A program made the position numbers and the translations under genes. A stretch of DNA of 64,000 nt from Callorhinchus milii (taxonomy: Eukaryota), in the NCBI RefSeq assembly GCF_018977255.1, contig NW_024704760.1, positions 2,852,001 to 2,916,000 on the forward strand. The letters are read 5' to 3'. The first letter of the stretch is position 1; each line of letters starts with the position of its first letter. The notes beneath the pieces were generated by a model. The model saw only the letters and a program-made list of their open reading frames with translations, had not been told where the DNA came from and did not search any database. Positions 26,777 to 63,830 of this stretch are shown in pieces.

Positions 26777-29269
26777 ATGTTCCACCAGGCAACTCACAAC
26801 TGGACCTGTGCAGTTGTTCTCCTCGGCCTTCTGATTGGGATAGGCTTCCCGGCTCCGATTGCACCCAGAGCCAGCGAGCGATGGGAAACCTTGCTCTCCA
26901 GGTCCATGCACCCTGTGTCTGGTCGGAGGCTTGACCTGGACTGGGACAGGGAGTATTACACTGGCATCAAGCGAGTCAGGAGGCTTTATTGCAACGTGGG
27001 CATCGGGTTTCACCTGCAAATCACGTCCGACGGACAGATTAACGGGATGCACCAGGAGAACCAGTACAGTAGGTAGTTCTCTTGACGGTCAAAATTCTTG
27101 CTTCTCTTGGCTTTGCCGGACAGATGCTTGCTCTGCATGCCGTGAAGGGGAGAGAGAGTGTGTGTGTGTGTGTGTGTGTGTGGGTTGGGGGGGTTGTAAA
27201 TATGCAGGATTCAATGAGACATTTTTGCCCCCTCCTCACCCTATAAGGTTTAGCGAGGCGAGGTGGGCGAAACGCAATGTTCATTGAAACAACCGACGCT
27301 CACTGTGCTGACCCATGTTCATCGTACGCTTTGAGGTGCTGATACCGCCCCCACCCCTTCCCACTTTCCCTCGTGTGAGCTCGTTCCCATCTTGAGCTGT
27401 CCTCAACCTTCCAGCCACCCCCCCCCCACCCCATTCCCACCAGCTCCCCCCCGCCCCGCTCACACACACACACACACACACACACCCTACGCTCAGCGAA
27501 TTGTCACCTTGGGTCATGTTTCCCATGTAAAATTCGGAGAACTATAGAATAATATAGTGGGATACAGTGTATATCCCCCTCCTCTTGGCTCCTACCTCCA
27601 GCTCGGGCGCTACGCCAGAACCTTATAGGAAATAATATCTTGGGATACAGTCATTTGGGACACGGCATGTCAAGCGACTGCTGGGATGGTGGAAAGTGAA
27701 CTGGATGCACCTTGGTCTGTTTTCTCCGAGCAAATTCGTACGTAGAAGCGGAGAGTTTATTTTCCAACCGGCAGGTTTTGCTTTAGATCGGGAGATACAG
27801 GAGGATAGGGACTGGGAGTGTTTGTTTGTTCGGCTGCCAAAATGCGATCGAGTTTCCCGAGCAGCTGATTGAAGTTTCGCACAGCAAAACGAAACCCAGT
27901 CTTGGTTTAATGCAGGCCAGAGTTGAGAGACCATTGAGACGCATCTGTTTCCATATCTTTCCAGACGTGAACGGTGCTGTCTATTGAAAATAATAATAAT
28001 AATAATAATAATGGTAATAATAATTTGGTCACTTCAATCCGCGACTGTTTGTGGGGACGCTGCCGTGCGCAATTGGCGTCCACGAAATATACAGTCAATT
28101 CACATCACGGTGCATTCTGCGAAGCGCTTTGAGACGTCTCAACCACGTGACAATGCGCTGCATCAATTGCAATGATTATCATTACTATTATTGTATTGTA
28201 TTTACAACACGGTCCGGTTCGAACTGTTTTCGCACAGCTCCGTGCTTTAATCGGCCGCTTTTCTTGGCGAAGAAACCGATGAAATTCCATTGAATTCCAA
28301 CGGAAATCAACCGAAACCTTGGACAAGCGGTTGGCTTTCAGCTGGAGGTTATTCTGTCTTGGCTGAGGCACAAGTTTAGATCAGCTGATTATAGCAGGAA
28401 CCAGGAAAAGCAGTTCGTATTGGTTTTAATTAGACCGCCTGGATGCCAGGGCAAAATTAGCCAGCAGACTGACCAGTGTCAGGTTGCAGTGTCAGCAGTG
28501 TTTCATAACATGGGAAACTTGGGGACGGGGGACCAGGGGGAACGGGACTTATTTGCAAAGGACTTTGTTTCGCCCAGAAAATATGCAGTCACTGCACCCT
28601 GCGGTATATGCTGTGAAGCGCTTTCAGGTGTCTCAATGAGGCGCTTGATCAAATGCAAAGCTTATTATTATTATTATTATTATCATTATTAAATGAGTTT
28701 TTGTTTTCCCTCTACAGAGCTGGTGTGTGTGTGTGTGTGTGTGTGTTTGGGCCTGTTTTTACCCACTTGATAGATATCTTATATTAATAATCCTTGCATT
28801 TGATGCAGCGCCTTATCACGTCCTCAAAGGCGTCTCAAAGCGCTTCACGGGACACACTGTAAAGTGGAGTGGCTGTGTATCTTGTAAGTGAAACGCAGAA
28901 TCCAGTTTGCACGCAGCAATGTCCCACAAACAGCCATGGAGTGAGTGACCAATTTCATTTGGGGAATTGTTGGGCAGGACACCGGGAGAGAGAGAAGCTC
29001 CTCTCTCTTTGCGAATAGCGCCGTGGGATCTTCAACGTCCCCCTGAACAGGCAGACGGGGAGTGAGGTTTTAGCGTCTCAACCGAAGGACGGATACTTTG
29101 TTCAAATGCAATTTTTTTTAAGAGCTTTGCAAAAAATCGGGTGGAGGTTTCGATGCTTTTGTTCCTTCGCCAGTCTTTAAGACGGGTTATTTTATTTTAA
29201 ATTATTATTATTTTTAGCTCCAGGCATCCCACCTACAAAAGGAAATCCTAGAGATAGATTGTTGGAATG

Positions 29270-29300
<31 letters not shown>

Positions 29301-30039
29301 GGTGGGACGCATTCTGCTTACCTAATGCCGGAAAGTATTAGGCGCGGGTTCCACAAGAGCCAAGGCTCGGGTGGGGGAGACCCCAGAGTGTGCGTTGGGT
29401 GAAGAAGCGGTGGGGGGTGCCCGGGGGGTGAACAACGACTGAGAATAACACAGACTAGTTAGCGATGAATCTCTCTTGCTGTTTAGGCCTGTTGATGATA
29501 TCTACAGTGGAGCTGGGAGTTGTCAGTCTGTATGGAGTGAAGACCCGGGTCTTCATTGCGATGAATAAAAAAGGACGTTTGTATTCAACGGTGAGTGTTC
29601 CACTTTATAACTGTGTTTAAATGAATTGGTTCTTTGAAAGCTCTGCCACTGGTAAACACTGTCCAGCGAGCTTCCTTCTACATACACCCTCACACCCCAC
29701 CACCAACGCCCCCACCTCCCCCTCCCATCCAACACCCAAAGGGGGACTTACCTCCCCCACACCCACACAGAGAATGTCCCACCCAAGTATGACACGAAAC
29801 AAATAATTATGGAGCGTGTTTATCCAAGCTTTTAAATAAAGAAAAATATATTTCTCCTGCAGACAAACTTCAACCACGAGTGTAAATTCAAGGAGAGATT
29901 CTTGCCCAACAGTTACAACGCGTATGAGTCGAAGGCGTACGTGGGAATGTACATCGCGCTGAGCAAACACGGCAGAGCCAAGAGGGGAAGCAAGGTCTCG
30001 CCCGTCCATAAGGTCGCTCACTTTTTGCCGAGGATGTGA
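26777..30039 (+). CDS. Fibroblast growth factor, FGF4/FGF6-like, secreted, ~190 aa, 3 exons
   Basis: Exons 26777-27068, 29487-29590 (the canonical 104-nt FGF exon 2) and 29863-30039. Signal peptide [12 protein letters not shown], then [39 protein letters not shown]...AMNKKGRLY and [18 protein letters not shown]...[17 protein letters not shown]...HFLPRM*. The family is clear; FGF4 vs FGF6 orthology is not. Confidence 0.93.
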
Positions 30040-39691: not shown

Positions 39692-42600
39692 ATGGCTGGG
39701 CTCTGGACTGGTGTGTTGTCTATGATTTTTAATATAATGGATTTCCATTCTTCGCATTGCTTATCGGAAGAATTGGTCGCTAAATAATGTGTGAACGTCT
39801 TAGCAGCTTGGAATTGTTGAGTATTTTCAGTAGGGCCTGTGTCGAGAGTGCAATAATATGTCGGCAATGTGGGTGTGCTTTGATATTAATCTTTTGCTTA
39901 TTTCTATTGCAGTGGGATTGGCGCTTTTGCTTCAGCTGCAGCTGGGTAAGTGATAGCTTCTGCGGATTTGGCCCTTATGTAGTTAGCTCTGTTTTTTTTA
40001 TCCTGCCCTCTCTCCTTCACCATATCCACCAAGCCATGAGATGCATTACTGAAAGCCTGTCTGTCAATAATTTCCTGAGGTTACTCATTAGATTGAGAGC
40101 CAGAAGGCAGAGAGGGTAGGGAAGGAATGAGACATCGAGGAGAGGGAACTAATTGCAAAACTGCGCCAAATAAAAAAGAGGTTTGATCGCGTTTTTCGAA
40201 TATAATCCAATAAAAGAAAAGCACAGTTTATTTCTAACCTAATGAAAAAAACAATACTTTTCCCCCTTCACCTTGCTAATTTCATCACGGGGGGTGGGGG
40301 TGGGTGGGGGCACTCTTTGTGCTTCATATGTTTTGCCTTTAAAGCGCTCTGGGACGCTACTCTGCGTGAGGGGCGCGATTTAAATGCAAGTTGTTGTTGT
40401 TCCAGCCTCTTCCTTCAAACTGGTTTGTTACTACACCAACTGGGCTCAGTACAGACCGGCTGCCGGTAAATTCTTCCCCGAGAATGTGGACCCCTGCCTG
40501 TGCACCCACTTGATCTACGCCTTTGGCAGTATGACCGCTAACCACGAACTTACCACCTACGAATGGAATGATGACATTATGTATCCGAGATTCCAAGCAC
40601 TTAAGAACAGGTTACTTCTGCGCTTAAATTTTGCGACAACGACGGCAACATTTCTCAGTGTGTACAATGTAAATAGATCTGTCAGCGATTGCACTGGTTA
40701 CGAGCTGTTTTTGGAGCGTATAAATAGCAATTCAATTGAGAATGAATCGAATGAAAACAGTCAGTTCATATTTGATGTATTTGCTTCCAACAGTAATAAG
40801 GACCTGAAGACATTGTTGGCTATAGGAGGCTGGAACTTCGGGACTCAAAGGTAAGAGCTGAAATATTTTATTCTTGTTAACGAATATTTGATTGCCGTTG
40901 GCAGCTCCTTCCCACACTGGGCAAACCAACAACATTTCCCATACATACATGGAAGACTCAGCTATTTGGTTTGGATGCTCCCAAGCACGTTGATGGGTTT
41001 CAAAATAAACCAATAAATAATAATATATTGGTCACTCACTCCCACAATTGTTTGCAGGACACTGTTGTGCACAGTTGGCTGCCCGTCTTTCACCCACAAA
41101 ATACACGGTCAATCCACTTTACAGTATATTCTGTGAAGCGCTTTGAGACGTCTCGAAGATGTGATAAGGAGCTTTATCAAATGCAAGGATTATTATTATT
41201 ATTATTATTATTATTATGATTGTATTTGTCAAGGTGCCTGTAATAAGGAATTCTGAATCTGCTCCCCAGGTTCACCAGCATGGTTTCCAGCGCAGCCAAT
41301 CGCAAGACTTTCATCGACTCGTCCATCAGGTTCCTGAGGAAACATGGCTTTGATGGACTGGATCTGGATTGGGAATATCCCGGTTCCAGAGGAAGTCCTC
41401 CAGAGGATAAACAGCGTTTCACCGTCCTCGTCAAGGTAACTGCATCCCCACGCCTGTCAAACACATCCCCCAGTGTGGCTATCACGCTCTATTGTGAAGT
41501 CCTGTAGCGTAGTAGCTGGAGCACTCGCCTTGCAAGCGTAAGGATCCAGGTTCGATTTCTGTGCGGGACAAAACCTTAGGCAAGTTTCCTTACTCCGCAG
41601 GCTCTCTGTTTACCTAGCAATAAGTAGGGACCTTGTTGCTAGTCGATTGGCAAATCGTCTTCCGGGAGAAATAATCCCTTCAAAATATAAAATGTGGTCA
41701 ATCAATCTACGACTGTTTGTGGGACGCTACTATGCACAATCGACTGCTGAGTTTGCCCACAAAGTACACCGTTAAGCCGCTTTGCAGTATATTGTGTGAA
41801 GCGCTTTGAGACGTCTCACCGATGTGATAAGGCCCTATATCAAACGCAAGGATTGTTATTATTATATTAATTCTGGACATCGCTGTGGGAAACTAGTTGG
41901 CTAACGTACCACCATTAACCTCTCACACCAATACTTTATCAGGAAATTTTGGAAGCGTTTGAAAACGAAGGACAAGCGACAGGAAGAGCTCGTCTGTTGG
42001 TCACAGCTGCGGTGTCCGCTGGCAAAGGAACCATCGATGCCGGCTACGAAATGGGTCTCCTCGGCAAGTAGGTTACATGATTTAAGTAAACATCTTCTCT
42101 CCTTCAAATCCCACATTAACTAGTTCGCCAATGAATGAACTTCATTTGTAGAGCGGCCTTTCATGTCTGGAGGATGTCCCAAGGCCCTGGACAGTCAGGG
42201 ATTTGGTTTCCGAGCAGTGGTTGGGATCGGGAGGTATAGAGGGCAGGAAGGGTAGGGGTAGGGGAGTGACCGAAGGAAGCGATTGAAGAGGAGGGTCTTG
42301 AGACGTGCCTTGAAGGAGTCGATTGGCAGATCGTTGAGATGGAGTTCCAAAGGGTGGGTGGTGGGGGGGTTGGGTGGTGATCACCCAACATGGTTGAGAC
42401 ATCTCAAATGCAAGGAAAGTGATGTGGTTCAGGAAATGAGATGGAGTCTAAGCTGTCGCTGCTTATTTGTGTTTCCAAAGATACTTCGATTTCATCAGCG
42501 TGATGACGTATGATTTCCATGGTGCCTGGGAAACCAAAACCGGACACAACAGCCCGCTGTACCGCGGCTCGACTGATCAAGGCGACATGATATACTTTAA

Positions 42601-44765
42601 CACTGTGCGTATTGACCATTAAACTCAAGGCGATTACTGTTTGGTTTCAGACCCAACCCCAGCCTCTTCTCCCCAATGCTAATCACCAAGCCGAATGTGC
42701 TTCCTTTCCAGGACTTTGCTATGAAATACTGGAGAGATGATGGGGTCCCGGCCGAAAAGCTGCTGGTGGGATTCGCTACGTACGGACGCACCTTGAGACT
42801 CTCCACGTCGAACTCTGGGGTGGGAGCTCCAGCAAGTGGACCTGCACCAGCTGGAACCTACACCAGAGAGGCTGGGTTCTGGGCTTACTATGAGGTGACT
42901 ATAAGTTTGTCACTGCATAGCAATGTATCCAGCAGGATATGGATTCCTGTAGCGTAATGGTTAGAACGCTCGCCTCGCAAGCGAGAGAACCCGGGTTCGA
43001 TTCCCGGGCAAGCCGAAACCTTAGGCAAGTTTCCTTACTCCAGACACTTACGTGTTTAACCGGATAACATTGGTAGCAAAGAAAATGCTGACAACGTTTC
43101 TTATTCCATGAACAGATCTGCGACTTCTTGAAGGGGGCACAAACCTCATGGATTGAGGATCAGAAGGTGCCTTATGCCTACAAAGGAGATCAGTGGGTTG
43201 GGTATGACAATACGAAAAGCTTCGAAGGCAAGGTAAGAATCGAAGAACTATTTTTATTTTGTAGGGCGTACTTTAATTTGAGTTTCATATCACGCAGTAC
43301 AGTATCAAATATTCAGTCAATTCGCTTTGCGGTATATTCTGTGAAGCGCTTTGAGACGTCTCGATGATGTGATAAAGTGCTATTTCAAATGCAAGGATTA
43401 TTATTATTGATTATAACAGTAGATAAATCAGCCTCCCTGCCCTCCACCTCTCTTGATGCCACCCCGAGCTTGGGTCCAAATCTCTGACTGTCCAGCGCTT
43501 TGGGACATCCTCCCGCCGTGAAAGGCGCTGTGTAAATGTAATTTGTTGTTGTTGTTGTTTCATGCACTGCACCACTTTTGGTGCACTTTTACTCCCACAG
43601 GTCGCCTGGCTCAAACAGAACAGCTTCGGAGGAGCCTTTGTGTGGACTCTCGATCTGGACGATTTCACTGATTCTTTCTGCAGCCAGGGTCGCTATCCTC
43701 TGATCTCCAAACTGAACTCTCTGCTTGGAATTTCTCAAGGTAACTTGGTTGTTCCTGGTCTTTTTTTTGTACACACAACACACACACACAGTGCAATTAT
43801 ATATTCCAAATCCATTTTTACTAACATTGCTCCAAGGGATTTTGTATCTAATATGAGGAATGGTATAAATTTGACACAGTTTATTAAACATGAATATACT
43901 ATTTTCAATGCAATACAAAATTATATTTGTATTGCGCCTTTGGCGGGGTGGGCCTTTTGCCACTCTGCCCCTACCCGCAGTCCCTCTGCCTCGTCCCCTC
44001 CCTTGCCTCCTTCAAGCACCATCTCAAGACACTCCTCTTCGACCGTGCTTTCGATCACTCTCCCCAATCCCGACCCCCAGCTCGGGTCCGAAACTCTGAC
44101 TGTCCTGCGCCATGGGATGTCCTCCTGACGTGAAAGGCGCCATATACGCACACGCACACACACACACACACACGTAATTTTGCTGTTGTTTTTGTCGATT
44201 GAGGTGTTAAAGTCAAACCCACAAAACCATAACATTAAATTGCTTCTCCGTGAAACCTCGACCCGTCCTCAAGCTCTGCCGACGACACACAACACGTTTC
44301 TTTTGACTTAAAAGTCATCTCGGCGTTTCAGGACTCTTTTTGATGTGTTTTTTTTTTGCAAAGGTGACATAGTGGTTTCACTTAACGATTCGCCCACGAA
44401 CTATACAATCAATTCACTTTACAGTGTATCTCGTGAAGCGCTTTGAGACGTCTCGAAGACGTGATAGGGCGCTGCATCAAACGCAAGGATTATTATTGTT
44501 GTTGTTATTTACGATTTTTAATAACTCTTCCCTTGCAGATTGCACCCCTGGACCAAACCCCAGCCCGGGTCCAACCACTACCACAACCCCTGGTGGGGGT
44601 GGTCCTGGGGACGGAAGCTTCTGCGATGGAAAGCCTGACGGGGTGTACGCTCACCCAGACGCCAGCAATAAGTTCTACGAATGTGCCGGAGGGAAGACCT
44701 TCGAAAAGACCTGCCCCAACGGATTAGTCTTCGACGAGTCCTGCAAATGCTGCAATTGGCCTTAG
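39692..44765 (+). CDS. CHIA: GH18 chitinase 1 (CHIA/AMCase-like) with Pro/Thr/Gly linker and one C-terminal CBM14, ~464 aa, 11 exons
   Basis: Exons 39692-39710, 39913-39945, 40406-40610, 40794-40850, 41270-41435, 41943-42067, 42481-42604, 42712-42894, 43116-43232, 43601-43739 and 44539-44765. Motifs: signal peptide [43 protein letters not shown], intact catalytic [25 protein letters not shown]14 FCDGKPDG...FYEC...[17 protein letters not shown]. The symbol is a family-level call. Confidence 0.93.
41500..41870 (+). mobile_element. Full-length tRNA-derived SINE, same family, in chitinase 1 intron 5
   Basis: Same head, body and tail as 11245-11610. Other copies at about 2870+, 6258+, 7690-, 9230+, 10440-, 14345- and 42945+, plus dozens of tail-only fragments. 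Confidence 0.8.
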
Positions 44766-47996: not shown

Positions 47997-50900
47997 ATGA
48001 CAAAGCTGCTTCTCTGGGGTGGTGAGTGCAATGTTAACCCTGACTCTTTACAGACTGCATGATTCCCCCCAAAAAATTAAATGACAGTTTTTGCGCACAA
48101 AATACCCAGCGCGATAATCAAACTACGTACCTATAACTAAAGTGTTTTTGTTAAAAAAATTCAGGAATAGTTCTGAGCATCTATAAACATCAAAATGCCA
48201 TTTAAGATTCATGTTTTTCCTGTTCATTTTTCAGTGGGATTGATCCTGTGCTTCCAATTGTACAATGGTAAGCTGTGATACACTCTAACCTTTCAGTCCT
48301 TAAATTTCTTATGGTGAATAATTCTATGTTTCACCACTGATGCATTTACTTGTTTCAGATGATCGAGCATTTTAAAATTGGGATCTAATTTGCAGCGTTT
48401 CTTAACAGGTTTCTTAATTAGAAATGCGCATTTATTGCATTTCTGAGCCACTAATATCTGAATTTCTAAACCCCCAAATTCCAGACATTCGATAACGAAT
48501 TCTTCAGCAATTCTTCAATGTTTCAGAGAGTCAGCGACTGCACATTCCTTGTTCAGAAATCAATTAAGAATGAATGCAAACCAGATCCATTGCCTCCTCT
48601 TACAACGTACGAAAAATAGTACCTTTCACCTAGGAGAAAATCTCAAAAAGCTTTTGGAATAAAAACCGAAGTCGCTGGGAACACTCAACTAATTTGTAAC
48701 CCATTCTAAACCAGTATTAGGCAAAGACTACAAACTGGTTTGTTACTTCACAAACTGGGCCCACAGGAGAGGAGACTGTAAATTCTTACCGAAAGATATT
48801 GACCCCAAGTTGTGCACACATCTCGTGTTTGCTTTTGCCACCATCGGGGAGGATCACCAAATAGTTGCCCAGGAGAAGGACGAGGAAGAGCGTTTAGTTG
48901 CGTTCAATAACCTTAAGAAAAGGTAACCATCACCTGTCGCTTAACACATCTTGTTGCATCTCTGTTTACCTAACAGCAAGCAGGAACCCGGTTGTTAGTC
49001 GCATGTTCGCTTCAGAATAAATTCTATTTGCCGATATTCTCAATGGGTGACTGTTCGGCTAAAACGACTGTAAAAATGTAGAACTCGAGCAAATGGGAAC
49101 TCGAGGAGACCATTTTTGTTTTCCGAAAAATAAAATCTTTTGAAATATTTAACGCTCAAAAATTGGGTCTTTTTTTTTTGAAAAAAAATAAAAATGAGGA
49201 TATTTTCTCGCCTTTTCGCAGGAATTCGAACCTGAAGACTCTCTTAGCCGTTGGCGGCTGGACATTCGGAACTGAAAAGTAAGATTCTTATGAATGGTAA
49301 ACAACTAATTATTCTACAAACTCGTGTTACAGTGAGTCTGAATTTGGGAGGCGGTGGTGGTGGGGGGAATGTACCTAAAGTATAACATAAAGTCTCATTT
49401 CCAAAGAGGTTGGATGAAAAAGGCCCTTTGGTCCATTTGTTCTCATTGTACCACGATAATCAAAGTAAAGCTTCGTATAACACCATCAAATGTTCCCTGA
49501 CTTACAGAATCATAGAGCACAGAAGGAGCCATTCGGCCCATCGTGCCTGTACCGTCTCTTTGAGAGCGCTACCAACTAGCCCCACTCCCCCTGCTTTTAC
49601 CCCATTGCTCTGCAAATTTTGCCACCACCTTTCCTGGTAACCAATTGCAGCTGTTCGCTACCTGGTGTAGAGAACCGTGTCCTGAAAAAAAAAAGGCAAA
49701 ATGACGCAGTTTTGTCATATTGCGATTTGTTCCTTATTTCAATTCATGTTTCTGTCAGGTTCACTGCCTTGGCTTCTATGCCAGACAATCGCCAAATATT
49801 CATCAATTCATCCATTAAATTCCTGAGGAAATACAAATTTAATGGATTAGATCTGGACTGGGAATACCCGGGGTCGAGAGGAAGCCCACCGGAAGACAAG
49901 CAGCATTTCACCCTGCTGGTTCAGGTGTGTCACATATAACCTTCGACTCCGCTCTATTCATCAGCGAAATCAGATTGTGTCGATTACACTCGCACCAAGG
50001 AATATCCAACCTCAAGGAATGGTTCACGTTCAATTGCACTGCCGTTGGATCCAGAGTCGTGAACAGATTCACCCACACAGAACGTACCCATTGAGACAGT
50101 ACCTGTTACTATTCCTTTTATGGGGAAAGGAGGGTAAAATGCAGGGATTCCTTCGAAGCCCAGGAACACTGGGTGTACATAGACTGGAAGGAGAAAAAAA
50201 AGCCCAAGACCCATCAGGTTTACTCAACCCTCTCTTTCCCATGCCACCTCCCTCACAATGTGCACCTCCACATCTCTCCTCTGAAAGGTGCTATGCATTC
50301 GTAATTCGTTGTCGTTGCTGCTGCGGGGACGCTATATACATGCAAGTTGTTGTTGTTGCTGATTCAATGCTGTACTTGTGTATACACAGGAATTGCTGGA
50401 GGAATTTAAGAGCGAAGCTCTCAGACGTAATAAGCCAAGGTTGCTGCTCACGGCTGCAGTGGCCGCTGGGATAAGGACGATCGAAGCCGGCTACGAAATA
50501 GACAAGATTTCCAAGTGAGTGGGAACCCCGTAAGGTACGTCTCCACACATCGGAACAAACACCACGACAGCCCGAACAGGAGCGGACACAGAATGTTTGA
50601 AAGAACGCCCCCTGTCCTCTAGAAATATTCACGACAGCGGTGCCAAGGTTTGGAAGGAAGCGAGTATGTTTCGCCCACAAGACGTACAAGTCAATTCATC
50701 TGACAGTATATCCTCTGAAGCGCTTTGAGACGTCTAGAAGACGTGATAAAGCGCTGCATCGAATGCGAGGATTATTACAATTATTACCGGAATTAATGTA
50801 AATAATGACAATTCTTCCAGTTGATACAACGTGAAAACGTTTCAAAAGCGCTTCACGGGGAATCGCTGTCAAGTGCAGAGACCGTTCCTTAATATCGCAA

Positions 50901-53820
50901 GTAGCAGCACGATGCCTAAATGCCTCGGCCCTATTTCGCTTCACGCTCGACTACAATTAACACAGCACCTGGTTTATTTTTTTTTTAAACTCTGCACAGG
51001 CACCTCGATTTTATCAACGTGATGACGTACGATTTCCACGGTCCCTGGGACAAACTGACAGGACACAACAGCCCCCTGCACGCGGGCTCCACTGATCAAA
51101 ACGATGACGTGTACTTTAACGTGGTACGTACGAAAAGGGCCACTTACTTTCAGAGACTTTCCATTCGGAGTTTTTCCGAGCGTGAGAAAAGCTCGGCCCC
51201 ATCGGTGACGAGGTTTAATTAAACCTTTACCCTCCAGGAGTACGCCATGAACCACTGGATAAAACACGGGGCTCCCGCCGAGAAACTGTTGGTTGGCTTC
51301 GCCACATACGGTCGCGCCTTCACGCTCTGCACGACTGATAACAGACCCGGGGCATCAGCATGTGGGCCAGCAAAGCCAGGCCGATGCACTGAGGTCCCTG
51401 GATTCCTGGCCTATTACGAGGTGTGTTTTGAAAGGCTTAACCATTGAGGGTATTTGCGTGTTCCGAACCCTTGCCACCACGCACTCCGCACCACTCTACC
51501 ATTTCGCCCACACAATACACAAGTCAATTCGCTGGACGGTTTATTCTGTGCAGCGCTTAGAGACGTCTCAGCCACATGATAAGGCGCTGTATCAAGTGCA
51601 AGGATTAGTATTGTTATTACTATTATTATTACTACTCACCAGCCAGCGATTGGGACTCTTGGTTGGCTGCGTGGGTTGATCTTATGGGAGAAGCAGGTGA
51701 AATACCTTTGAGACTCTTGGCAGCCAACCTACTTCCCTGGTGAGCAGTAATGCTGTCCTCAACAGCTTTGTGCAACGAGTGCCTTTCCGCGTTAGGGTAC
51801 GAGCTTCTCCCTTAAAATAGGGGCAAAAATGTTATTTTTTTGTTAGAAAAAAATGTGCACCTTTTTCTCTCCACCCCCCACCCCCCTCACCCCTTCCCCC
51901 CTTCCCTCCCCATCAACAGGTTTGTGACTTTTTGAAAGACGCCGAGAGAAAATGGATCGAGGATCAAAATGCTCCGTACGCTTACAAGGAGAACGAGTGG
52001 GTCGGGTATGATGATGCCACAAGCTACAAGAAGAAAGTACGTGTGGAACTCCATTCCAAAGTCCCTTCACCTCGCCCCCCACCCCCACACCCATTCTTGC
52101 CTGCGCCTTCAGGTCACCCTCCTACCCCTTTTTGCATATATACCCAATTGTGCAGCCCAACACAGCTTACAAAGGAGTCACTACACTTGACCAGAACACA
52201 TGTAAAATACTTTACAAGATCCCCGAAACAGAAGTGCTGTAAAAATACAGATTTTCTTCTTTCTTAAAATTAGTTAACAACTTCATGACTGTTTGTGGGT
52301 CAATGCTGTGCGCAAGTTGGCTGCTGCCTCTGCCTTGAAATACACAGCCACTGCACTTTACAATAAATTCTACAAAGCAATTTGAGACATCCTCCCGATG
52401 TGAAAGGCACTAAATCAAATGTAAGGATCATCATATAAAAGTTTGATTGCTCATTTTATGTCTCCATTTAATGCACTGAATTGAAATTGAATTGAAACAT
52501 TGAACCCGATATCCTAAACTTGAATACTGTTAATTAAGCCTGAAGGAACTTGGAGCAAAGTTGTCTCTATGTGTGTAATAGCGTTGGAAAAAATACTTAA
52601 GGTTTTCAATCAAAGTTTACCTCACAAACTGTTTTCGTGTAAGGTTCAAAAGAAATGTTTGGTGTTTAGTTTTGGTGGGTTGCGTTGGCTGATTTAAACG
52701 AGAGGAGAAAAAAAATATAGAAAGAAAAAAGTATTTTGAATGACTTTGATCCCCTCAGGTCGAGTGGTTGAAAAACAATAACTTTGGAGGTGCAATGGTG
52801 TGGTCGATAGACACGGATGATTTCAAAGGAACTTTCTGTGAGCAGGGAGCATCGCCCCTAATAAACACCCTGAAGTCTCTGCTCTCTGATTCTGCAAAAA
52901 ATACAACAGGTAAAAAGCATTCAGTACAAAGCGCTGCCGGGAATTCTCTCGTTCAGTGCAAAGAACATCAAACAAACCAACAGTATTTCTTAGAACAAAT
53001 AATCACTGGAGCTTTGAGTAGAATTTCCAGCTCGTGGGGAATTAATTTGCTGTACGCGACGATAGTTAAAAGTAATCGTGTCTGCGAGACTGCGGCTCTT
53101 TCATGTGAAGCCTCGTCCACAAAATACGCAGTCACTCCACGTTGCGGTCTGCTCCGTGAAGCGGTTTGACGCGTCTCAATGAGGTGACGAGGTGCTCCAT
53201 CAAGCGCAAGGGTTGTTAAGTCGGAATGTTCTTTTGTTTTTTTTCCCCCCACCTCTTCAGCCGGGTCCACCTCACCCCTGGCCACAACTCAAGCCCCACC
53301 GGGCTCGGAGTCGGTCGACCTCTGCCCCGACCTGAAATTTTGCCGCGGCAAGAGGGACGGCGTCTACCCAGTGCCGTGCGCGGTGGCCAGCTTCTACCAG
53401 TGCGGCAACGCGAGCACCAACATCCAGAGGTGTTACAGGGGCACCGTCTACAACGCCACCGAAAACAAATGCCTCTGGCCTCCGAGGTTCTCTCCGACGA
53501 TCAACCTAGTTGAGAACAACTTCTGCAAAGGGCAAGCGGACGGCAAGTACCCGATGCCAGTCCCCACCTACCTCCAATGCTCCAGCGGCAGAATGCGCGT
53601 CATGGAGTGTCCCACCGACCTGCTCTACCATTCGACCACCGGAAACTGCGAGAGTGCGAACGCCCCTGCAGATTACGACTCCAGATATTGCAAGCACGCT
53701 CGCGACGGCACCTATCCCATCCGAGGCAGGCCCACCAAGTATTACCAGTGTGAAAATAAGAAGACCGCAATACAGCAATGCCCCCGGGGGAAAATCTACA
53801 ACAATTTCCGCAAGTTCTAG
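47997..53820 (+). CDS. GH18 chitinase 2 (CHIA-like) with three tandem CBM14-like modules, ~582 aa, 11 exons
   Basis: Exons 47997-48021, 48235-48267, 48715 (or 48721)-48922, 49222-49278, 49759-49924, 50390-50514, 51000-51123, 51238-51420, 51920-52036, 52759-52909 and 53261-53820. Core exon sizes 57/166/125/124/183/117 match chitinase 1. Signal peptide [17 protein letters not shown]; catalytic [12 protein letters not shown] retains DxDxE; the last exon encodes three F/YC..DG.YP..YQC..C..Y repeats. Confidence 0.92.
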
Positions 53821-56365
53821 GACTTGTCAAGTCGTGCAGCAAAGTACTCTACATCACCGGAAACCTGGTCAGAGGTTGCGATTAAATTAAGATCTAAACC
53901 ATCGCTTTCTGGAACTGCTGATCAATGTCAAGCATTTCAAAGCAATATATAAACTCTAAACTAAATATCAGCTCTTATATATTCCAATAGAGGCAATCTG
54001 GACACACACACGCACGCACTAGAGCATCAAGTTGACCTACATTCATATTAAAATGCTTTTGATCAAAACTTTCGCGCTTTTTAAAAAAAATATGAATACT
54101 GAGAATAAGTGTTTGAGTGCATTTTTACGGAGCTGCTTTGGGTTTGTTGAACCAAGTAAAAATAAAAAAACGGCCATTTAACGGTAAACACGAGATACCA
54201 CAGTGCAGGATTCTGAGCTCCCCAGTCTTCTCTTTAAGAGCAATCGCGTTCTGCACAAAAGCAAAGACAAAAGGATTTTGGTTATCAATGCACGTTACTT
54301 CAGTGTTTGTGACATAACTGGTTTCACAAAGAATAAACTGGAGCTTGAATTGGACGATGTTCTGGTTGTTGGGATAAGCAGCAACGACAACTTGCATTTA
54401 TATAGCACCCCTCAAGCAGGGCAGTGTTCCACAGCACAACACAGTAAGGAGGCTTAATTATTGTATTGGGGAAAACGCTTAATTCAATATGCTTTAATGT
54501 CAAGTCAATAGACCCCTTGGGCGAAATACTTAATTCACCTTAAAACACCCGCCAAAGTTGCAGTCTAACATGGTTCGAAATGACAAAGTCTATTATTGCG
54601 GACAGATTTTTAACCAGGTTAAGGAACAACCACATTACAGTCTTTTAGCATAGAAACCAAGTGCACGATGACATGCCACATTATTCATAATAAATGTAGC
54701 CAATGATTAAATTCACTCCTCTGTGTATGTGTGGGTGGGTGTGTGTATTGGGGGAGGAAGGGTGAAAAATAAGAGGGGAAGGGAGGAAAAAACACTAACC
54801 TTGCCAAATTCGCATTTGCCCTTAAGCAGAGGGGGGGGATTTGTACATTCAAAACTTGTACAGTCAAACAAAATAGACGTACAGCATCAACAGCTGTGTT
54901 GCATCAATCTTTCAGACAGACAGACAGTCCATAAATTGTCTCTCCACCCACTCAGGGGCTGGGAACCACAGCTTCCCGATCAGAACAGAGATCAATATTG
55001 TATCAATAAAGAATATATATATATATAAATAAGGAATATATATATATATAAAAAATCGAGTAAGTAATCGACAAGTGGACATGAGTTAAAAAGCATTTAA
55101 TTTCTGTCCGTACCCAATGTATTACTTCTCAACTTCATACTTTTTAACATTAAAATTCATGTTTAATGACTCAAATTGCACAGACACACATCATTTGTTA
55201 TTCGCTTGCAAGCTGGTCTGGTAATGGTTTCGAACAAACATTCGACCAAAATACAATTTAAACGCATCAAAGGTGTTGCAATATTTTTAACTGTGAATTC
55301 CAAAAGTAGAATGCAAATACTGCTAAGAAAAATATAGCGAGTAGGCATTCACCTCCAGCAGGAATTAGACTTTTCTACGGTGACGCTTTGAGTTCTTGAA
55401 CCACTTAATACATGAGAATAAGTGTGGGACTTAAAATAAAAGTGAAAACAATTCGTTTTTTTCCCCCCGTTAATATTGTATCGATACAATACAATTTGCA
55501 GATAACACAGTCAACCTCCTAGCAAGATCAACACTTCAGCAGACAAAGAAAAGTTGGTCTGAAGAGGGAAAATGCTGGTGTCTTTATGGGGTAATCTTAA
55601 TAGGTCGCTATTAAGTCTGTCCAGTGTTCTCCCAGTGACCACTGATCCTTTCCAAGTTTGATTTAGCTGGAATTAAGATCCAATATTTCTAGTGTTCTGA
55701 ATAGTTTGAATTCTTTTCAGAAGCACAATCAATTTTCTTGAGTCTGTGCTTTTTGTTTTAATATGTGTGTAAAAAAAAAGATTCTTTTCTGCACTTTCTT
55801 CAAACCTGCAGAACACAAATGACATTATCAGTGGATACGGTTACACCAATCACGCTACCTTCTGCGGTCCAAACCTTCACCACTGCCGTTTCCAATCAGA
55901 CAGTGAGTGTGTTAAAGAGTGAATAAAGTTTCAATGTCAAAGGTATGGGTGCCATCGGTAGTATTGCAACTAACACCACTACAAAACCACAAACCCAAAT
56001 TCGACAGGGTTTTTCTTTTAAACAACAAAGTGCAACGTAAAAATTATTCGACATACTATGATACACACTGAGCTCTCCTACAGTAATAGTCAAATGCGTC
56101 TTTGTTTATTTAACAATTTCAAAACTCTCAACCTTTCCCAATAATCGCCACAGGTATAATTTGTTCCCCACCAAAAAAAAAATTGCAGGATAATAATAAT
56201 AATAATAATTATGAATTATAACAGACAATTTGAAAATAGTCAGATTTTCTAAGAAAGATTAGAGTTTAACACTCTTGGTGTTGATTTATTTGTGATCGCT
56301 TTTGAAGCTTCTACACAGAGGTCTCACAAGTTCGAGGAAACAAGGTACAGTACACACACGTACCA

Positions 56366-59300
56366 TTAAAATCGGTAATTTCTGTCTTTGTCCGGCTTTA
56401 TTCCACAATATTTTTCTTGAGTGTAATCTTGTCCTTGACTAGTCTTTGGTGGATACTTATCCCAGGACTCGTTACTTCTGGAGGAATACCTGGGTGAATC
56501 ACAGGGTCTGTCTTTCCCACAGCTGTCCCTTTGTTCTCGGTTTCTCTCTGGGTAATAATCCCTGTGTGGAGAGTGATCTCTTTGATGACTGTGCTGTCTC
56601 CCTCGATCGTAATCGGGTTCTCTCTCTCGGTAATAACGCTCGTGGGAACCCGGACTTCTAGAACGATCTCTCCGACTCCCGCTCCTCTCGCCCGATCTCC
56701 GCTTTTCTCTTTTCCTTGAAAGCTCCTTCTCCCTTTTTTTATGTATTAAAAAAAATATAAGATTGTTTACTTAATGTCAGCCAAGAGCTTGAAATCTTTG
56801 AAGGACGAACAGAATAATAATAATATTAATAATTCTTGCATTTGACATAGCGCCTTATCACATCGTTGAGACGTCTCAAAGCGCTTCACAGGGTATACCA
56901 TAAAGTGGACTGACCGTGTATTTTGTGGGTGAACACAGTACAATTTACACGCTCCTTAGCTTACATTGCACACGTCTGATTCATATTGCTTCAGATCACA
57001 AGTAACCCATCATTTCTATGGCATATTTGACGTGAATTACTGCCAGCTTAAAGCCAGTATAAATGTATTGTATTCTCGCTCATGAGACCAGTGACTTCTA
57101 AGAACTTAGCACCATCGTCAGGCAATCCGCAGTACTACAAATATCTGTAAAGCCATTTAATAACGGGAGAGAACATAGTTAAAATAATAATAATCCTTGC
57201 ACTTGATGTAGCGCCTGATCACGGCATTGAGACGTCTCAAAGCGCTTCACTGGATACACTGTAAAGTGAACTGACTGTATTTTGTGGGCAAAAAAAATTT
57301 GATTCCAAGAATATTTAGTGTCTCTGCAAGTAAAATAATAATAATCCTTGCATTTGATGTAGTGCCTTAACACGTCTTTGAGACGTTTCAAGTATAACCA
57401 ATCAATTGGAGCAATTTTAAACCAGGAAAGCCGTTGATTTGAAGCCTTTGCCTGTCAAGTTGTGATCTGGGAGCTTGCAGCATCTACAAACATCTAAACC
57501 ATTGCTACAAGTTTATATTTGATCCAGTTGGGTGGGTATCTTTTGAGCGAGCCTTTGGACAAGAAATAAAAGATATATTACCACGATCCCGAGGCGTGTG
57601 GTTTGGGTTTGGGTTCTTCATTGTGAGGCTTCTCTGGAGTGCAGTTTGGTGAATCCCTGTATCCATCCTGTGCAATTGCTTTTGATTGCTTAACTAAGGA
57701 AACCAGTTTAATTAGAGTCCCATAATCATTTGAATGGCCATCTGGAACAGAAGAGGGAAACGTCAAACCCGTATGCTCACTAAGTTTCTAAGTTGCTTAA
57801 TAAAATGGCAGAACATAGTTTGCTGTGTGCAAACTACCTGTACATGAGATACAATTAATAGCGATCAAAGTTCTAGAAGACATTGAAGTGCCTTTTAATG
57901 ATCGGATAAAAAGTGGTATTTTATGGTAAATGTAACAACCTTTAAATATTTCAAAGACCATTGCGCTCCTAGTTGGAATTAATTCAATCCAGTTGTCTGT
58001 TAGAGTTTGTTAGTTTAGCTAGTAAAACTTTACGGCCTTTATTATTACATTTCATGCGAAAATGCACCACTGTTGATGTTTTATTAGAATGTGCACAGGG
58101 CGGAATGGCAAGCTAAAGAAATGGCTTCACCTCGTTACCTTTGCTCACCACAGACCCGTCACTCGGTGGAAAATTCTGTGTTCTGTTTATTTCGGTAACA
58201 AACTCCATTGTATTGGGCGATTTCTCTGGAAAATGCATTTCCCTGTGGAAGAAATGCATCCAATAAGCTTCAGACTTCAAATATATATATATCTACATTA
58301 TATATACACACACACACACACACAGCCATGAATATTAAAAAACAGGATGCACAAGCATGATCAGATATTTTGGCAGTGCAGCAAGTTAAAGCATCGACGT
58401 AACAATGCTATCATACCTCCTTTCGGAAATAATATATTCCTTAAAATAAAGGGAAAAAATTCCAGTGGTGTGAGGAAACAAATCACATAACGAGTTACTC
58501 TGAAGCCCAGCGACTGCTATGAAGACAGCCAAGGTAGCTCGGAAGTAATTCAACAACAATTTGCATTTATATAACGCCCTTCACGTGGAGTAGCGTCCTG
58601 GAGCGCTTCCAAGACCTTAATCCTCTGTAAATAGATTCAACGAGGAGTAAATGGATGGTTCAATTCTGCCTGCATAATGCACTTAGGTCTTCAATTGTAT
58701 ATTTCAAACATACGGCTACAACAACAACAACAACAAATTACATTTGCATACGGCCTTTCACGGAGGTATTTACCTCGAGTCGCAGAAGCCCATTCAGTGC
58801 AAACCTATTCTTAGGACAGTGTGGTCATAAAGATAACAAACCGAATTCTCACCTTCTTGGTATTCTGTAATCCAGAGTATAAGCACAGTAACCCTGCTGT
58901 GGATTCGTGCTACTGTCTAAAACAGTCTGTCCTGTGCTGACTGGTGTTAGGAAGGTGGGAAGGTTGCCATGAGGAGTATTTAAAGTCTGACTGTGTCTGA
59001 TAAGACCAGGAGGTAGAAGGTTCCCGGCTGGTAATCCCAATGGAATTAAGTGACGCAACATAACGTTGGGGGGAGGAGGACAGGGAGGATGACAGGCTTC
59101 ACTGATGAGTTTCACAACCGGCTGTTGGAAAGGCGAAGGCGTTTCCTCTTCAAAGTCGGGATCTGTCGAATAAAAATAAACAATACCTGCATTTAATAAC
59201 GCATCTATACACATCGAAACAATGAGTTAACTGAAGCGCAGTGAGTGCTTCGAAGGGTGACGAGGTAGCTAGGAGCAATTTGAGAACATACTGAGGAGAG

Positions 59301-62300
59301 ATTAAGCGCACCTTCAGTGGCTTCTTCCAAAGCGTCGGGCAGAGATTCGTTGTCACTTTTCTCGGGATCATCTTTATCATAATCCTCCTGCCCTTCCTCG
59401 TCGGGTAAGTGCAACTTGGAATTTTCCATTGCTGCAAGCAAGGACACAAACCAAAAATATTCCCATTTATTTGAAACGAAGAACTGATGGGTACATCGCA
59501 AGCAAAGTTGAACCACATAGCTGGTTTATGCACTCTAAGACTCGATCTTAAAAAGGGTACATTATTTGCAAGGTGAATCGTAATTTCGAGCAAGTTGAAA
59601 AACAAAATCTCACATACCATAATTTTGTTTTAAAAACACTAAAAGATTCAGAGCCTGATAGACCACAATCCCACAGACTTTATTTTGGAAAGGAAGAGAA
59701 ACGAACAAGCAGGACTTACATTAGCAAATGGATTTGAATTAGTCGAATTTGCTGAACAGAAAGTACAGGTGTTTGACCTTACGCCAAAAGCTGGTAACTC
59801 GTAGTCTAGTCAACTTACGTTCTCCTAAAGCCACCTGTTGGGCAGAATTTTTATTCAATATGCCCAGTCAACAAACTTACCATTTATGAACTGCATTTCA
59901 AAGTACTGTCGATTTGACATGGTGAAACAACGAACATCAGGAATTCTTCCATGGATCTCTTTCTTTGGAAGCATTTCTAACAGTCTATTGAGATCCCAGT
60001 CTGATGACAAACACACCTTAACAAATCTGCGTAAGACAACACAACAGTTTACTTTTTGCCACCAAAACAGTAACAACAACAACTTGAATTTATACCGTGG
60101 TCTCTCAGGCAGGGTAGCGTCCCAGAGAGCGCTTACTATGATCATTCAAGCGCAGCCACGGACTGGCTTCGGAAATTCTTCGTCTTACATAGGATCAGGA
60201 GTAGGCCATTCAGCCCCTCGAGCCTGTTCCGCCAATCTATTAGATAATAGTTGATCTGTACCTCAACTCTAATTACTTCTATAATATCTTCACATGGAGA
60301 TCCTGGTGTACAGTAGCTCACCCTTTTGACTGTCCGCCTTTTTGAACTTCATAAAATTTGATTCGATCGACGTTACATATTCCAGCTGTACGAATGGCCG
60401 CCATGATGTCGTCATTTGTTGTCCACTGCGGGAAAGCAACACAGCCCGAATCAGCAAAGGCAGATGGTCATTTCTGTTGTGTTACTATTTCATTCAATCA
60501 CTCAGGCTTGGAGCTCAATTCTAACGTGATCCTTCTTTCCTTTGGACACTTTCGATGCAACACTGCTGCGCGCAAGTGGCTGCCTCCCAGAATATACTGT
60601 AAAGTGGGGTAACTGTTTTATTTTGTGAGCGAAATGTGGCAGCCAATTGCGCACAGCAGTATCCCCACAAACAGTCGTGGATCGAGTGACCTGAAATTTT
60701 TTTTTCAGATGGATTATTACCCCTGGAAAGCGATCCGCCAATCGCTCACGATATTTATAGCAAATATTGTTGTCGTGCTACCAATTCGCCATATCAGACA
60801 CACGTAACGATGCTATTGATTCAATATATTTTTATAAATAGTATGATACGATCAAAAATACTCACCCACGTCAGATTTCCGATGAGCAGAACCTTCTCTT
60901 CGGAACATGGAATTTCGATCCTCTGTGGAAGAGCAGGTTTACTGACAACGACAGGCTTTGTCTGTATGGTGATGTTGAAGGATTTGGGCGCTGGCACGAA
61001 ATCAAAGGGTGTCTCTTTAGGAACCAGCCCATTATTCAAAGGCACTCCTATTATATCATTTATCAGATCGTCGTACAAATCCTTCTGTTCCTCACTTTCA
61101 ATTTCCAGCTGCTAGAAAATAAAAGACACGGGAATGAAACGTTATCGCAACTTACCCCTGAAATGCACTGAGTGGAAATAATAATAATAATAATGGATAT
61201 ATTTACATTGACATTTGGACCTGTCGATTGTTGGTGTCAGTCATAGATACTGGATGTCACAACCCGGACTATCAGTTCGCCGGCAGATAATAATACAGTA
61301 ACAGCAGATAAAAAGACCTAATCTTTGCAATTTATGTAGCGTCTTATTACGTCATTGAGACGTCTCAAAGTGCTTCACAGAATATACTCCGTAACATCGC
61401 TCGACTCCACCACTACCTCACCCCTCAGGCCGCTGAAACTCTTGTTCATGTCGTCATCACCTCCATCCAGGCTCGACTATGCAACCGCCCTGCGTGTCGG
61501 CCTTCCCAACTCCTCCCTCCACAGCTGCAGATAATCCAGAACTCTGCCGCCCGTGTCCTCTCCCGCACCAAACTCCGTGACCCCATCTCCCCCACTCTCG
61601 CCCGACTCCATCGGCTCCCTATCCTTCAGAGGATCCAGTTCAAGATCTGGTCCTCACATACAAAGCCCTCCATGGCCTCGCCCCACCCTATCTCTGTGAC
61701 CTCCTAACCCCCTACCAACCCGCCCGCTCCCTCCGCTCAGCCAGCTCCGGCTGCTCCACATCCCCCGACCCACCCGCCCCATCACTGGCGGGAGAGCCTT
61801 CAGCCACTCTGCCCCCAACCACTGGAATTATATACCCCAGTCACTCCGCCTCGCCCCCTCCTTAGCCTCCTTCAAGTCCCGCCTCAAGACCCTCCTCTTC
61901 GACCATGCCATCTGCCACCCCCCTTCCCCTCCTCTCCCTTCTCCCCCACCCCCGCCCCCAACCCCAGCTCGGGTCTGAAACGCTGTACACAGTCGAGTGC
62001 CTTAGGACGTCCTCCCGACGTGAAAGGCACTATACAAATGTAATCTTCTTGTTGTTGTTGTATTGTAAAGCAGATTGACTTGTGTATTTTGTGGGCGAAA
62101 CGCGGAAGCCAATTGCACAGCAATAACCCACAAACAGCTGTAGAAATCACCAGCTTCAAGATCTAGTAAAAAATCTGTTTTTTTTCTTTTTTAGATGCTG
62201 ATTGAATTGCTGCAGATATCTAGCGTGTCTTCGTATTCACGGTTACGGTATTATTATCCACTGGTTAACTGATTGTCTGGGTTGTGACAACCAGTATCTA

Positions 62301-62871
62301 TGACTGGCACCAACAATGGACAGGTGGAAAGTCAACGTAAACACATCCATGCAATAAATCTGGATAAAGGTACCTTATCAGATATACGTTAAGATTCACA
62401 ACCATAGGCATCGGATTTTAATCAATAAACAATCCACTTGCGGCTCAGGAAATGTAAATAAACAGCATTTGGAAGCCACAGGATGCATCCTGTCCCCTCC
62501 AGTCGCCAACTACAACTTACACTTATATAGCAGCCAGTTTCCGCACAGCAATGTCCCGCAAACAGAGGTGGGGCGAGTGAAACGATTTTATTTGGAGGTT
62601 TGGCCAGGACACCGGGAGAGAGAGAAAAACTCCCTTCTCTTTTCGAATAGCGCATTGGGATCTTTTAACGTCCGCGTGAACAGGCGCAGGTGGGACTTCG
62701 GCTTTAATGTCTCATGCGAAGGACGGCACCTTCGACAATGCAGCGCTCCCCCAGCGCTGCTTTGGAGTGTCAGCTTAGACTGTGCGATTGCAAGTCCTGA
62801 CGTGGGAGCTCGGATGCGTAACCTTCTGACTCAAGAGACCAGAGTGCTACAGACTGAGCCAGACTGACACA

Positions 62872-62907
<36 letters not shown>

Positions 62908-63749
62908 GACTGAGCCACACACACACACACAGCGACTGAGACAGACTGACACACTCACACACACACACACACACACAGTGACTGAGCCACACACACACAC
63001 ACAGCAACTGAGACAGACTGACACACTCACACACACAGTGACTGAGCCACACATACACACACACACAGTGACTGAGCCACACACACACACAGCAACTGAG
63101 ACAGACTGACACACTCACACACACACACAGTGACTGAGCCACACACACACACACAGCGACTGAGACAGACTGACACACTCACACACAGTGACTGAGCCAC
63201 ACACACACTCACACACAGTGACTGAGCCACACACACACTCACACACAGTGACTGAGCCACACACACACTCACACACAGTGACTGAGCCACACACACACTC
63301 ACACACAGTGACTGAGCCACACACACACTCACACACAGTGACTGAGCCACACACACACACAGCGACAGAGACAGACTGACACACTCACACACACACACAC
63401 AGTGACTGAGCCACACACACACACACACACAGTGACTGAGCCACACACACAGTGACTGAGCCACACACACACACAGACACCGTCACAATCAGCCCCCAGG
63501 GTGGGGTGGGGTGGGGTGGGGGGAGGGGGGGAGGGAGGGGCCTATTCGTCCATCACAGCCGCTCCCACCCACCACCAGGCCCCGGACTGAGCCGCGGGGC
63601 CCCGCGCTCCCTCCCTCCCTCCCTCTCGCTCTCTCTCCCTCCGAGTCCGCTCCCCGCCCCCCGTCCCCCCGCCGCTCAGTTACCTGCCTGGAGCCGCCCT
63701 CCCCCGCACTCTCGGCGTCCAGCAGCTCCTCTCCCAATTCACCCGCCAT
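56366..63749 (-). CDS. Divergent CPSF6/CPSF7-like cleavage factor Im large subunit (RRM + acidic/Pro-rich middle + RS/RD/RE tail), ~540 aa, 9 coding exons
   Basis: Minus-strand exons 63749-63684 (in-frame ATGs also at 63767 and 63782), 61111-60866, 60425-60322, 60026-59881, 59431-59312, 59162-58853, 58242-58139, 57741-57582 and 56732-56366, all GT-AG and phase-consistent. Peptides [13 protein letters not shown]|[11 protein letters not shown]...IKFYE...GQSKG|FVKV...[12 protein letters not shown]...[13 protein letters not shown] and [16 protein letters not shown] align with CPSF6/7. An intron starts 2 nt after the stop and a 3' UTR exon starts at 55805. Confidence 0.88.
61195..62350. mobile_element. 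Palindromic MITE-like element (~110-bp inverted arms) split by later insertions
   Basis: 61195-61305 is an imperfect reverse complement of 62240-62350 (e.g. cagtcatagatactgg..gtcacaaccc). Confidence 0.7.
61389..62060 (+). mobile_element. L2-clade LINE, 5'-truncated 3' fragment with degenerate ORF2 C-terminus and (TTG)n tail
   Basis: Frameshifted translation [70 protein letters not shown]; stem-loop tail ending aaatgtaatcttcttgttgttg. Confidence 0.88.
62500..62865 (-). mobile_element. Deu-domain-type SINE (other copies at about 3490+, 23740+, 28790-, 33110-, 34850+, 35700-)
   Basis: Reverse complement reads tggctcagtctgtagcactc..gacactccaaagcagcgctggg..gccgtcc..cctgttcacgcggacgttaaaagatccc..gtgtcctggcc, resembling SacSINE1/AmnSINE1-type Deu elements. 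Confidence 0.7.
62853..63480. repeat. Compound (CA)n / gtgactgagcc minisatellite, ~30-bp unit
   Basis: Repeated acagtgactgagccacacacacactc units with interspersed gcgactgagacagactgac units. Confidence 0.9.
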
Positions 63750-63830
63750 CTTCAACAGCACCGCCATCTTGGCACATCCCATGGTGCTTAGCGGCCACTG
63801 CGGGGGGGGGGGGGGGGGCGCAATGGGTTT
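63540..63830 (-). promoter_or_regulatory. CpG-rich first-exon region of the CPSF6/7-like gene with tandem YY1-type AAGATGGCGG motifs
   Basis: GC/CpG-rich. CCGCCATCTT occurs at about 63743 and 63761 and overlaps the start codons, as is typical of housekeeping RNA-processing genes. Confidence 0.55.

Follow-up and report, generated by a model that had tools for sequence, protein, structure and literature searches.

Does the gene on the minus strand of a 64,000-nucleotide (nt) stretch of the Callorhinchus milii genome (contig NW_024704760.1, forward-strand positions 2,852,001 to 2,916,000; the whole stretch is called the window) encode a third large subunit of CFIm, and if so, where did it come from and what might it do? 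CFIm takes part in selecting the sites at which mRNAs end. PMC7614891 describes it with two large subunits only, CFIm68 (CPSF6) and CFIm59 (CPSF7), of which CFIm59 is the weaker activator; there, CFIm25 (NUDT21) binds UGUA and CFIm68 recruits CPSF via Fip1. The analysis points to an intact, spliced third gene of this family, likely a copy of CPSF6 from the second whole-genome duplication of vertebrates (2R); this third gene is predicted to encode a decoy or weak CFIm large subunit. This statement as a whole is put forward tentatively, at a little under an even chance; its core, the identity as a third family gene together with an origin by genome duplication, is regarded as highly probable.

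Structure, transcripts and relatives of the third gene

The coding region of the third gene runs on the minus strand from 63782 to 56366 in nine exons (99, 243, 104, 146, 120, 310, 104, 160 and 367 nt). All eight introns are of the GT-AG type, the phases are consistent, a single stop codon closes the frame and the protein is 550 amino acids long. A further intron lies in the untranslated region (UTR), with its donor 2 nt past the stop codon and its acceptor at 55805, as read from the sequence and the RefSeq models. A sequence-only reading of the window had described an intact nine-exon CPSF6-like open reading frame with RRM exons of 104 and 146 nt and a post-stop intron, and this description was borne out. 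The same 550 residues are held by RefSeq as XP_007897729.1, a predicted 'CPSF6-like' protein of Callorhinchus milii, and the gene has therefore already been machine-annotated. When single exons were submitted to Pfam, no family passed the cut-off in any of the nine.

Ten sequencing runs (9 samples, 3 studies) contain part of the window; they are guessed to be RNA, none being recorded as such. Contigs of four of the ten, from coded tissues and giving no expression level, were aligned over exons 2 to 6. All four runs join exactly across the 149-nt intron; for each of the introns of 449, 295 and 440 nt, two of the four do so. One contig of 2,877 nt covers exons 2 to 6 with zero mismatches, and the loose end of a contig matches exon 7. 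Although the RNA label of the runs is a guess, the exact joins across four introns show that spliced molecules of the third gene were sequenced. The sole variant in the aligned stretch is synonymous, one site being too few for an estimate of selection. The 3' UTR exon (54493-55805, minus strand) starts at the acceptor at 55805; its far end was placed from 1,941 unaligned letters of a spliced contig, a weak hint, and ATTAAA occurs at 54498, with others at 55762, 55167 and 55101.

Coding exon 1 (63684-63782) contains three in-frame ATGs (63782, 63767 and 63749), and its junction with exon 2 is drawn from the sequence and the RefSeq models. Met6, at 63767, is kept in all 15 orthologs and newer RefSeq models begin there; it is likely the start codon. 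The upstream ATG at 63782 is found in 4 of 15 rows (chimaera, horn shark, a skate and an electric ray), where it gives an MGC- N-terminus that may be an annotation choice. Such an N-terminus resembles lipid-anchor starts, but is without the usual Ser/Thr. The CpG/YY1 start proposed from the sequence stood in part. Exon 1 does hold two motifs that we take to be YY1-like; the start region has a GC content of 70% but a CpG observed/expected ratio of 0.50, against 0.73 for the gene body, and is therefore no CpG island by that measure.

A search of the genome with the exon 4 peptide matched three loci: the third gene and one locus on each of two other contigs, called here C5 and C17 (the contig of the third gene being C19). 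Upon reconstruction, the C5 locus is canonical CPSF6 and the C17 locus CPSF7. Both have 104- and 146-nt exons in the same phases as the third gene; CPSF6 has nine coding exons, like the third gene, and CPSF7 has eight. The neighbourhoods MDM2-CPSF6 and CPSF7-BEST1 contain the canonical genes on C5 and C17, and the RSLD family model (PF25524) passed its cut-off only at these two loci, with no match at that of the third gene. NUDT21 has one locus, and the exon tested there matches the human protein at 65 of 66 residues. The RRM of the third protein is 44% identical to that of CPSF6 and 42% to that of CPSF7, and a profile-profile match to canonical CPSF6/7 over 385 columns (E 2.6e-45) shows that the resemblance is not due to chance. 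Judged by these features, the gene belongs to the CPSF6/7 family by descent and is assigned to neither subfamily, because three features that define a working CFIm large subunit, the canonical loop, the proline-rich middle and PF25524, are all missing from it.

Several simpler accounts were discarded. A processed retrocopy is ruled out by introns that are all at ancestral positions. A tandem duplicate or haplotype artefact is ruled out by the different contig, the 44% RRM identity and orthologs in 15 species. Nor is the gene the sole CPSF6 or CPSF7 ortholog of the genome, the canonical loci being on C5 and C17, and it is not untranscribed, given the spliced contigs; the retained extra paralog proposed by the sequence-only reading is thereby upheld. 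Two side observations concern the canonical loci. Coding exon 6 of CPSF6 on C5 (36180575-36181078) carries a one-base frameshift in the assembly, likely an assembly error because the remaining gene is highly conserved. Adjoining CPSF7, two bestrophin copies lie side by side at C17:4079099-4099247, by tandem or assembly duplication.

Database searches gave 14 further clusters that match the third protein over 69-100% of its length at 33-52% identity. Thirteen are named sharks or rays and the fourteenth has two named skate members, which with the chimaera makes 15 named species. The next matches were ordinary CPSF6 with far lower scores, and a search with the clade profile returned the same 15 clusters before the score dropped from 589 to 178 bits. 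In an unseeded search of 1.84 billion representatives, only chondrichthyan records ranked over the canonical family. Clear scores for clade membership were obtained for 28 of the 292 proteins retrieved, and those of them with a species name are all from cartilaginous fishes. No bony-vertebrate ortholog was found among the best 120 matches of each of two word-seeded searches, nor among the best 150 of 264 matches in the representative search. By this evidence the third gene is common to chimaeras, sharks and rays, and it was likely lost in bony vertebrates. In each of the two catshark species a single chromosome carries two copies, and the loop of the second copy is changed further.

The gene evolves fast, as had been proposed: its divergence within cartilaginous fishes is about 5-10 times that of CPSF7. 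Chimaera-shark distances in the core alignment are 0.49-0.82 for the third gene versus 0.06-0.08 for CPSF7, and RRM identities between chimaera and sharks are 56-82% and 94-98%, respectively. Conservation nevertheless follows the domains, with scores of 0.86 in the N-terminal motif, 0.79 in the RRM, 0.80 in helix 3, 0.80 in RSLD helix 2 and 0.86 in the RS core, versus 0.43-0.57 in exon 1 and the linkers. Invariant columns make up 10 of 20 in the N-terminal motif and 9 of 19 in the RS core. A slowly decaying duplicate under relaxed constraint and with no distinct function, to which the rate relative to CPSF7 in the same lineages, a mostly disordered protein model and the extra divergent catshark copies could point, is very improbable in view of this domain-shaped conservation, the spliced transcripts and the full-length frames that are open in 15 species on both sides of a split dated to about 420 million years ago (PMC6238376).

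Origin of the third gene

Trees were built from a core alignment, from the RRM alone and under a mixture model, with no cyclostome rows; the core and RRM trees and the approximately unbiased (AU) test used 33 of 40 rows (7 were dropped for speed or gaps). The third-gene clade received supports of 100/100. Its stem is 1.0-1.7 changes per site long, versus 0.05-0.9 in the crown; because a long stem is followed by a slower crown, we infer that an early remodelling gave way to renewed constraint, as the branch lengths suggest. The position of the clade differed between trees: it was placed as sister to CPSF6 with 51% support in the core alignment, but on the CPSF7 side with 79% in the RRM alone and with 81/84 under a mixture model. 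The AU test rejected none of four placements, sistership with CPSF6 having p values of 0.70 (core) and 0.18 (RRM). From trees alone, the sister group cannot be fixed.

Synteny was more informative. Gene names given here beyond Pfam and PDB matches are a reading of translations. On C19, an MDM4-like gene lies 0.54 Mb from the third gene and MYOG is also present; adjoining the third gene are SLC45A3, a NUCKS1-like gene, an FGF4/6-like gene, chitinases, SORT1 and PSMA5. On C5, MDM2 is about 45 kb from CPSF6, and the contig holds a bestrophin gene, MYF5/MYF6, a second SORT1 and an FGF4/6 paralog. C17 carries CPSF7, the two bestrophins, MYOD and another FGF4/6 paralog. Sets of paralogs are thus spread over these contigs: MDM2 and MDM4-like on C5 and C19, MYF5-MYF6, MYOD and MYOG on C5, C17 and C19, FGF4/6-like genes on all three, and SORT1 on C19 and C5. 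In the little skate (PMC10115646), Cpsf6-1 is about 0.26 Mb from Sort1-2 on LER24, and Cpsf6-2 is with Sort1-1 on LER19; in Table 3 of that paper these two chromosomes form a pair of segments, 2beta being LER24 and 2alpha LER19. Because the paralogs of its neighbours are on the CPSF6 contig, and in the light of the skate table, the third gene is most likely the beta homeolog of CPSF6, a 2R ohnolog. Beta segments show more gene loss and faster evolution, and 19 ohnologs were kept in chondrichthyans and lost in bony fishes, according to PMC10115646; the third gene may or may not be among these.

A duplicate that derives from CPSF7, or that arose within chondrichthyans, and was then relocated into the block would account for the CPSF7-ward lean of the RRM-only and mixture-model trees and for some CPSF7-like residues in the RRM. 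We consider this improbable. The lean unites the two branches that evolve fastest and lacks statistical significance, the third gene has the exon 5/6 intron that is present in CPSF6 and absent from the CPSF7 of this genome, and its neighbours have paralogs beside CPSF6 or on its contig.

The neighbours inside the window merit a brief description. The FGF4/6-like gene is intact, with three exons on the plus strand (26777-27070, 29487-29590 and 29863-30039). Its last exon is 63% identical to the C5 and C17 paralogs and 54% to a copy on contig C1; because of these last-exon paralogs, the gene looks like a further ohnolog of the same block. Two tandem family-18 chitinase genes follow on the plus strand (40384-44765 and 48700-53820). 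The second has three C-terminal chitin-binding CBM14 modules and converges tail to tail with the third gene. A catshark gene model fuses the third gene to the neighbouring chitinase, so the two are linked there as well. Elsewhere in the genome, extra MDM-like SWIB fragments were seen on the small contigs C1291, C1081 and C193, one near-identical to the C19 copy and two with an internal stop.

Altered regions and predicted action on poly(A) sites

The N-terminal half of the protein is encoded largely by three exons. In exon 2 (60866-61108) a conserved N-terminal motif of acidic and hydrophobic residues, predicted to form a helix at 39-51, is followed by RNP2, which reads LLIGNLTW. Exon 3 (60322-60425, 104 nt) encodes RRM helix 1, strand 2 and a rebuilt beta2/beta3 loop, EVQKGGQ, and exon 4 (59881-60026, 146 nt) encodes RNP1, the second half of the RRM and helix 3. 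The exon 2 acceptor is a tandem CAG-CAG (61108-61111, minus strand) that yields isoforms differing by one Gln (+1 Gln). Pfam RRM_1 passed its cut-off in only 4 of the 15 members. The protein model is mostly disordered; beyond a confidently predicted RRM, whose third helix is extended, it shows little. The best matches of the RRM were 3Q2S, 3P5T and 3N9U in phmmer and the same in Foldseek, at a root-mean-square deviation of 1.4 A, to CFIm68 chains bound to CFIm25; as modelled, the domain still folds like that of CFIm68. IGNLTWW is invariant in all 15 members, and we take W90 and W91 to contact CFIm25.

The beta2/beta3 loop differs. It reads V-x-K/R-G/S/T-G-Q in all 28 clade records (isoforms and near-copies included). 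Its length, Glu116, Gly121 and Gln are retained, and the canonical 116-122 sequence is absent.

The region after the RRM is more heavily changed. Exon 5 (59312-59431, 120 nt) encodes the end of the extended helix 3 and then an acidic linker, at the position of the Gly/Arg/Pro-rich exon 5 of CPSF6. The acidic exon 5 of the sequence-only reading is present in Callorhinchus milii, but its strong acidic run is not conserved (0 of 31 columns invariant) and is, from the alignment, particular to this species. A remnant of the proline-rich region is found in exon 6 (58853-59162, 310 nt). Proline amounts to 7-14% of the middle region in the six members measured, versus 41% (CPSF6) and 28% in canonical references; compositionally, the proline-rich region is lost in the third gene.

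The RSLD helices are encoded by exon 7 (58139-58242, 104 nt versus 116 in CPSF6/7), with an eroded first helix, and by exon 8 (57582-57741, 160 nt versus 154), with a conserved remnant of helix 2 and a proline-broken helix 3. PF25524, which models the RSLD N-terminal helical region, matched none of 15 members and four of four canonical controls, although a homologous remnant is still alignable by profile-profile comparison. In a control with an alignment of equal depth, canonical CPSF6 was modelled as three helices with pLDDT values of 81-95 and the third protein with none. Identity to the CPSF6 counterparts is 16% for helix 1 and 20% for helix 3, and prolines interrupt helix 3 in 15 of 15 third-gene rows versus 0 of 23 canonical rows. 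In both catshark copies, RSLD helix 2 is followed by an expanded Ser/Arg repeat of ten residues.

Exon 9 (56366-56732, 367 nt) encodes the conserved RS core, a diluted and doubled RS/RE tail and the stop codon; its junction, like that of exon 8, comes from the sequence and the RefSeq models, and its acceptor is unusual in having an A run ahead of it (56733-56740, minus strand). The tail, built around the RS core, is twice the CPSF6 length and has 1.3-2.8 RS/RE/RD dipeptides per 10 residues, about one third of the canonical 5.9-6.3. An ESM Atlas search with the tail was uninformative (best feature score 0.78, no TM above 0.5). The changed peptide sequences, the erosion of the first RSLD helix and the dilution of the tail, all described by the sequence-only reading, were found as stated.

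These changes would fit a decoy or weak CFIm subunit that favours proximal poly(A) sites, a prediction put at a little under an even chance. Docking of the RRM on the NUDT21 dimer would use the unaltered NLTWW loop together with the rewritten loop of the same length, probably with altered affinity; the thinned RE/RD tail and the absent helical module would recruit Fip1/CPSF poorly; and where the gene is expressed, NUDT21 would be taken from CPSF6, so that UGUA-dependent transcripts would shift to proximal sites. The prediction draws on an analogy: the third protein resembles a natural version of a CFIm68 that lacks half its RS domain, which binds CFIm25 and fails to restore distal sites (10.1101/177980). 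The rebuilt loop and activating tail together suggest a role in dampening, not driving, long 3' UTRs. A stricter form, in which a CPSF6 copy was rewired before the shark-chimaera split into a dedicated inhibitory subunit with a non-canonical NUDT21 loop and no CPSF recruitment, produced short 3' UTRs and was lost in bony vertebrates, is unlikely.

Some results weigh against a decoy. In the loop, Asn117 is replaced by Val in 28 of 28 records and Asn120 by Gly, Ser or Thr, whereas among the 252 of 258 other family proteins with a readable loop, 242 have Asn117 and all 252 have Asn120. When residues 116-122 are deleted, CFIm25 is no longer bound and poly(A) regulation is abolished (10.1101/177980, PMC6511849), and because of this and the replaced asparagines, NUDT21 binding may be lost. 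Totals of RS/SR dipeptides are 6-12, versus 9-12 in CPSF6/7, and the tail is basic or neutral, so the contact with Fip1 may persist. Finally, for some mRNAs the overexpression of CFIm59 fails to reproduce the effect of losing CFIm68 (PMC9458458), which advises caution on decoy models.

The first group of these points leads to the strongest competitor, an exit from CFIm, in which the loop would no longer bind NUDT21 and the N-terminal helix, the RRM with helix 3 and the RS core would serve a new RNA-processing partner. We judge it somewhat doubtful. It would explain why two near-invariant asparagines were replaced throughout the clade, and it fits the stem of 1.0-1.7 against a crown of 0.05-0.9 (fast remodelling, then renewed constraint) and the invariant half of the N-terminal motif. 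NUDT21 is single-copy and, being near-unchanged in the exon tested, did not adapt to the new loop. However, the Trp-Trp loop and the loop length are retained, and the top structural matches are RRMs bound to CFIm25.

Less probable still is a specialised activator like CFIm59, binding both NUDT21 and Fip1 and promoting a particular subset of poly(A) sites, maybe in a single tissue, for instance the germline that the sequence-only reading had named as an example. It is conceivable because the RS dipeptide total is near normal and CFIm59 overexpression does not always mimic CFIm68 loss; all three family regions are recognisable, the RS core keeps its invariant columns, and CFIm59 and CFIm68 differ in site preference (PMC9458458). 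Against it speaks the loss here of the three-helix module and of the proline-rich region, both conserved all the way from invertebrates to mammals. As for tissue restriction, a skate fin H3K4me3 HiChIP table of PMC10115646 has a Cpsf6-1 bait, a weak hint of a somatic active promoter.

Significance and known systems

Of the regulators of 3' UTR length, CFIm has been studied best. With a third large-subunit gene kept for more than 400 million years, the CFIm repertoire was likely larger in the ancestor of jawed vertebrates. The gene offers a natural separation-of-function variant, in which loop, proline-rich region, three-helix module and tail are each altered and the RRM fold is unchanged, and so bears on the role of the three-helix module and on how much of the loop sequence NUDT21 requires. 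If the decoy reading is true, it would be an evolved means of global 3' UTR shortening. No account of a third CFIm large subunit was found in the literature searched, most subscription papers and some supplements being beyond reach. The text of PMC10115646 contains no mention of CPSF, that of the whale shark paper and the elephant shark supplement gave no match to the gene, and the literature on CPSF6 ohnologs in cartilaginous fish gave MDM2-CPM-CPSF6 synteny only.

The third gene may be compared with three known systems. With CPSF6/CFIm68 (3Q2S, 3P5T) it shares nine coding exons in the same phases, the 104- and 146-nt exons, the post-stop intron and IGNLTWWT. In contrast to CPSF6, the loop ENRANGQ has become EVxKGGQ, the RNP2 Tyr is Leu or Met in most members, PF25524 goes undetected in 15 of 15, proline is low and the tail is longer and sparser. 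CPSF7/CFIm59 (3N9U) is the other canonical large subunit of CFIm, with an RRM 42% identical to that of the third gene, but its loop asparagines and three helices are intact, its tail is dense in RE/RD, and it lies in a different chromosome block. The third gene is like the chondrichthyan-kept ohnologs (PMC10115646) in its beta-segment position and its faster evolution, and unlike them in being a subunit of a core RNA-processing complex. Ohnologs retained in chondrichthyans are thus a known class, and a remodelled core RNA-processing subunit is a less ordinary member to propose for it.

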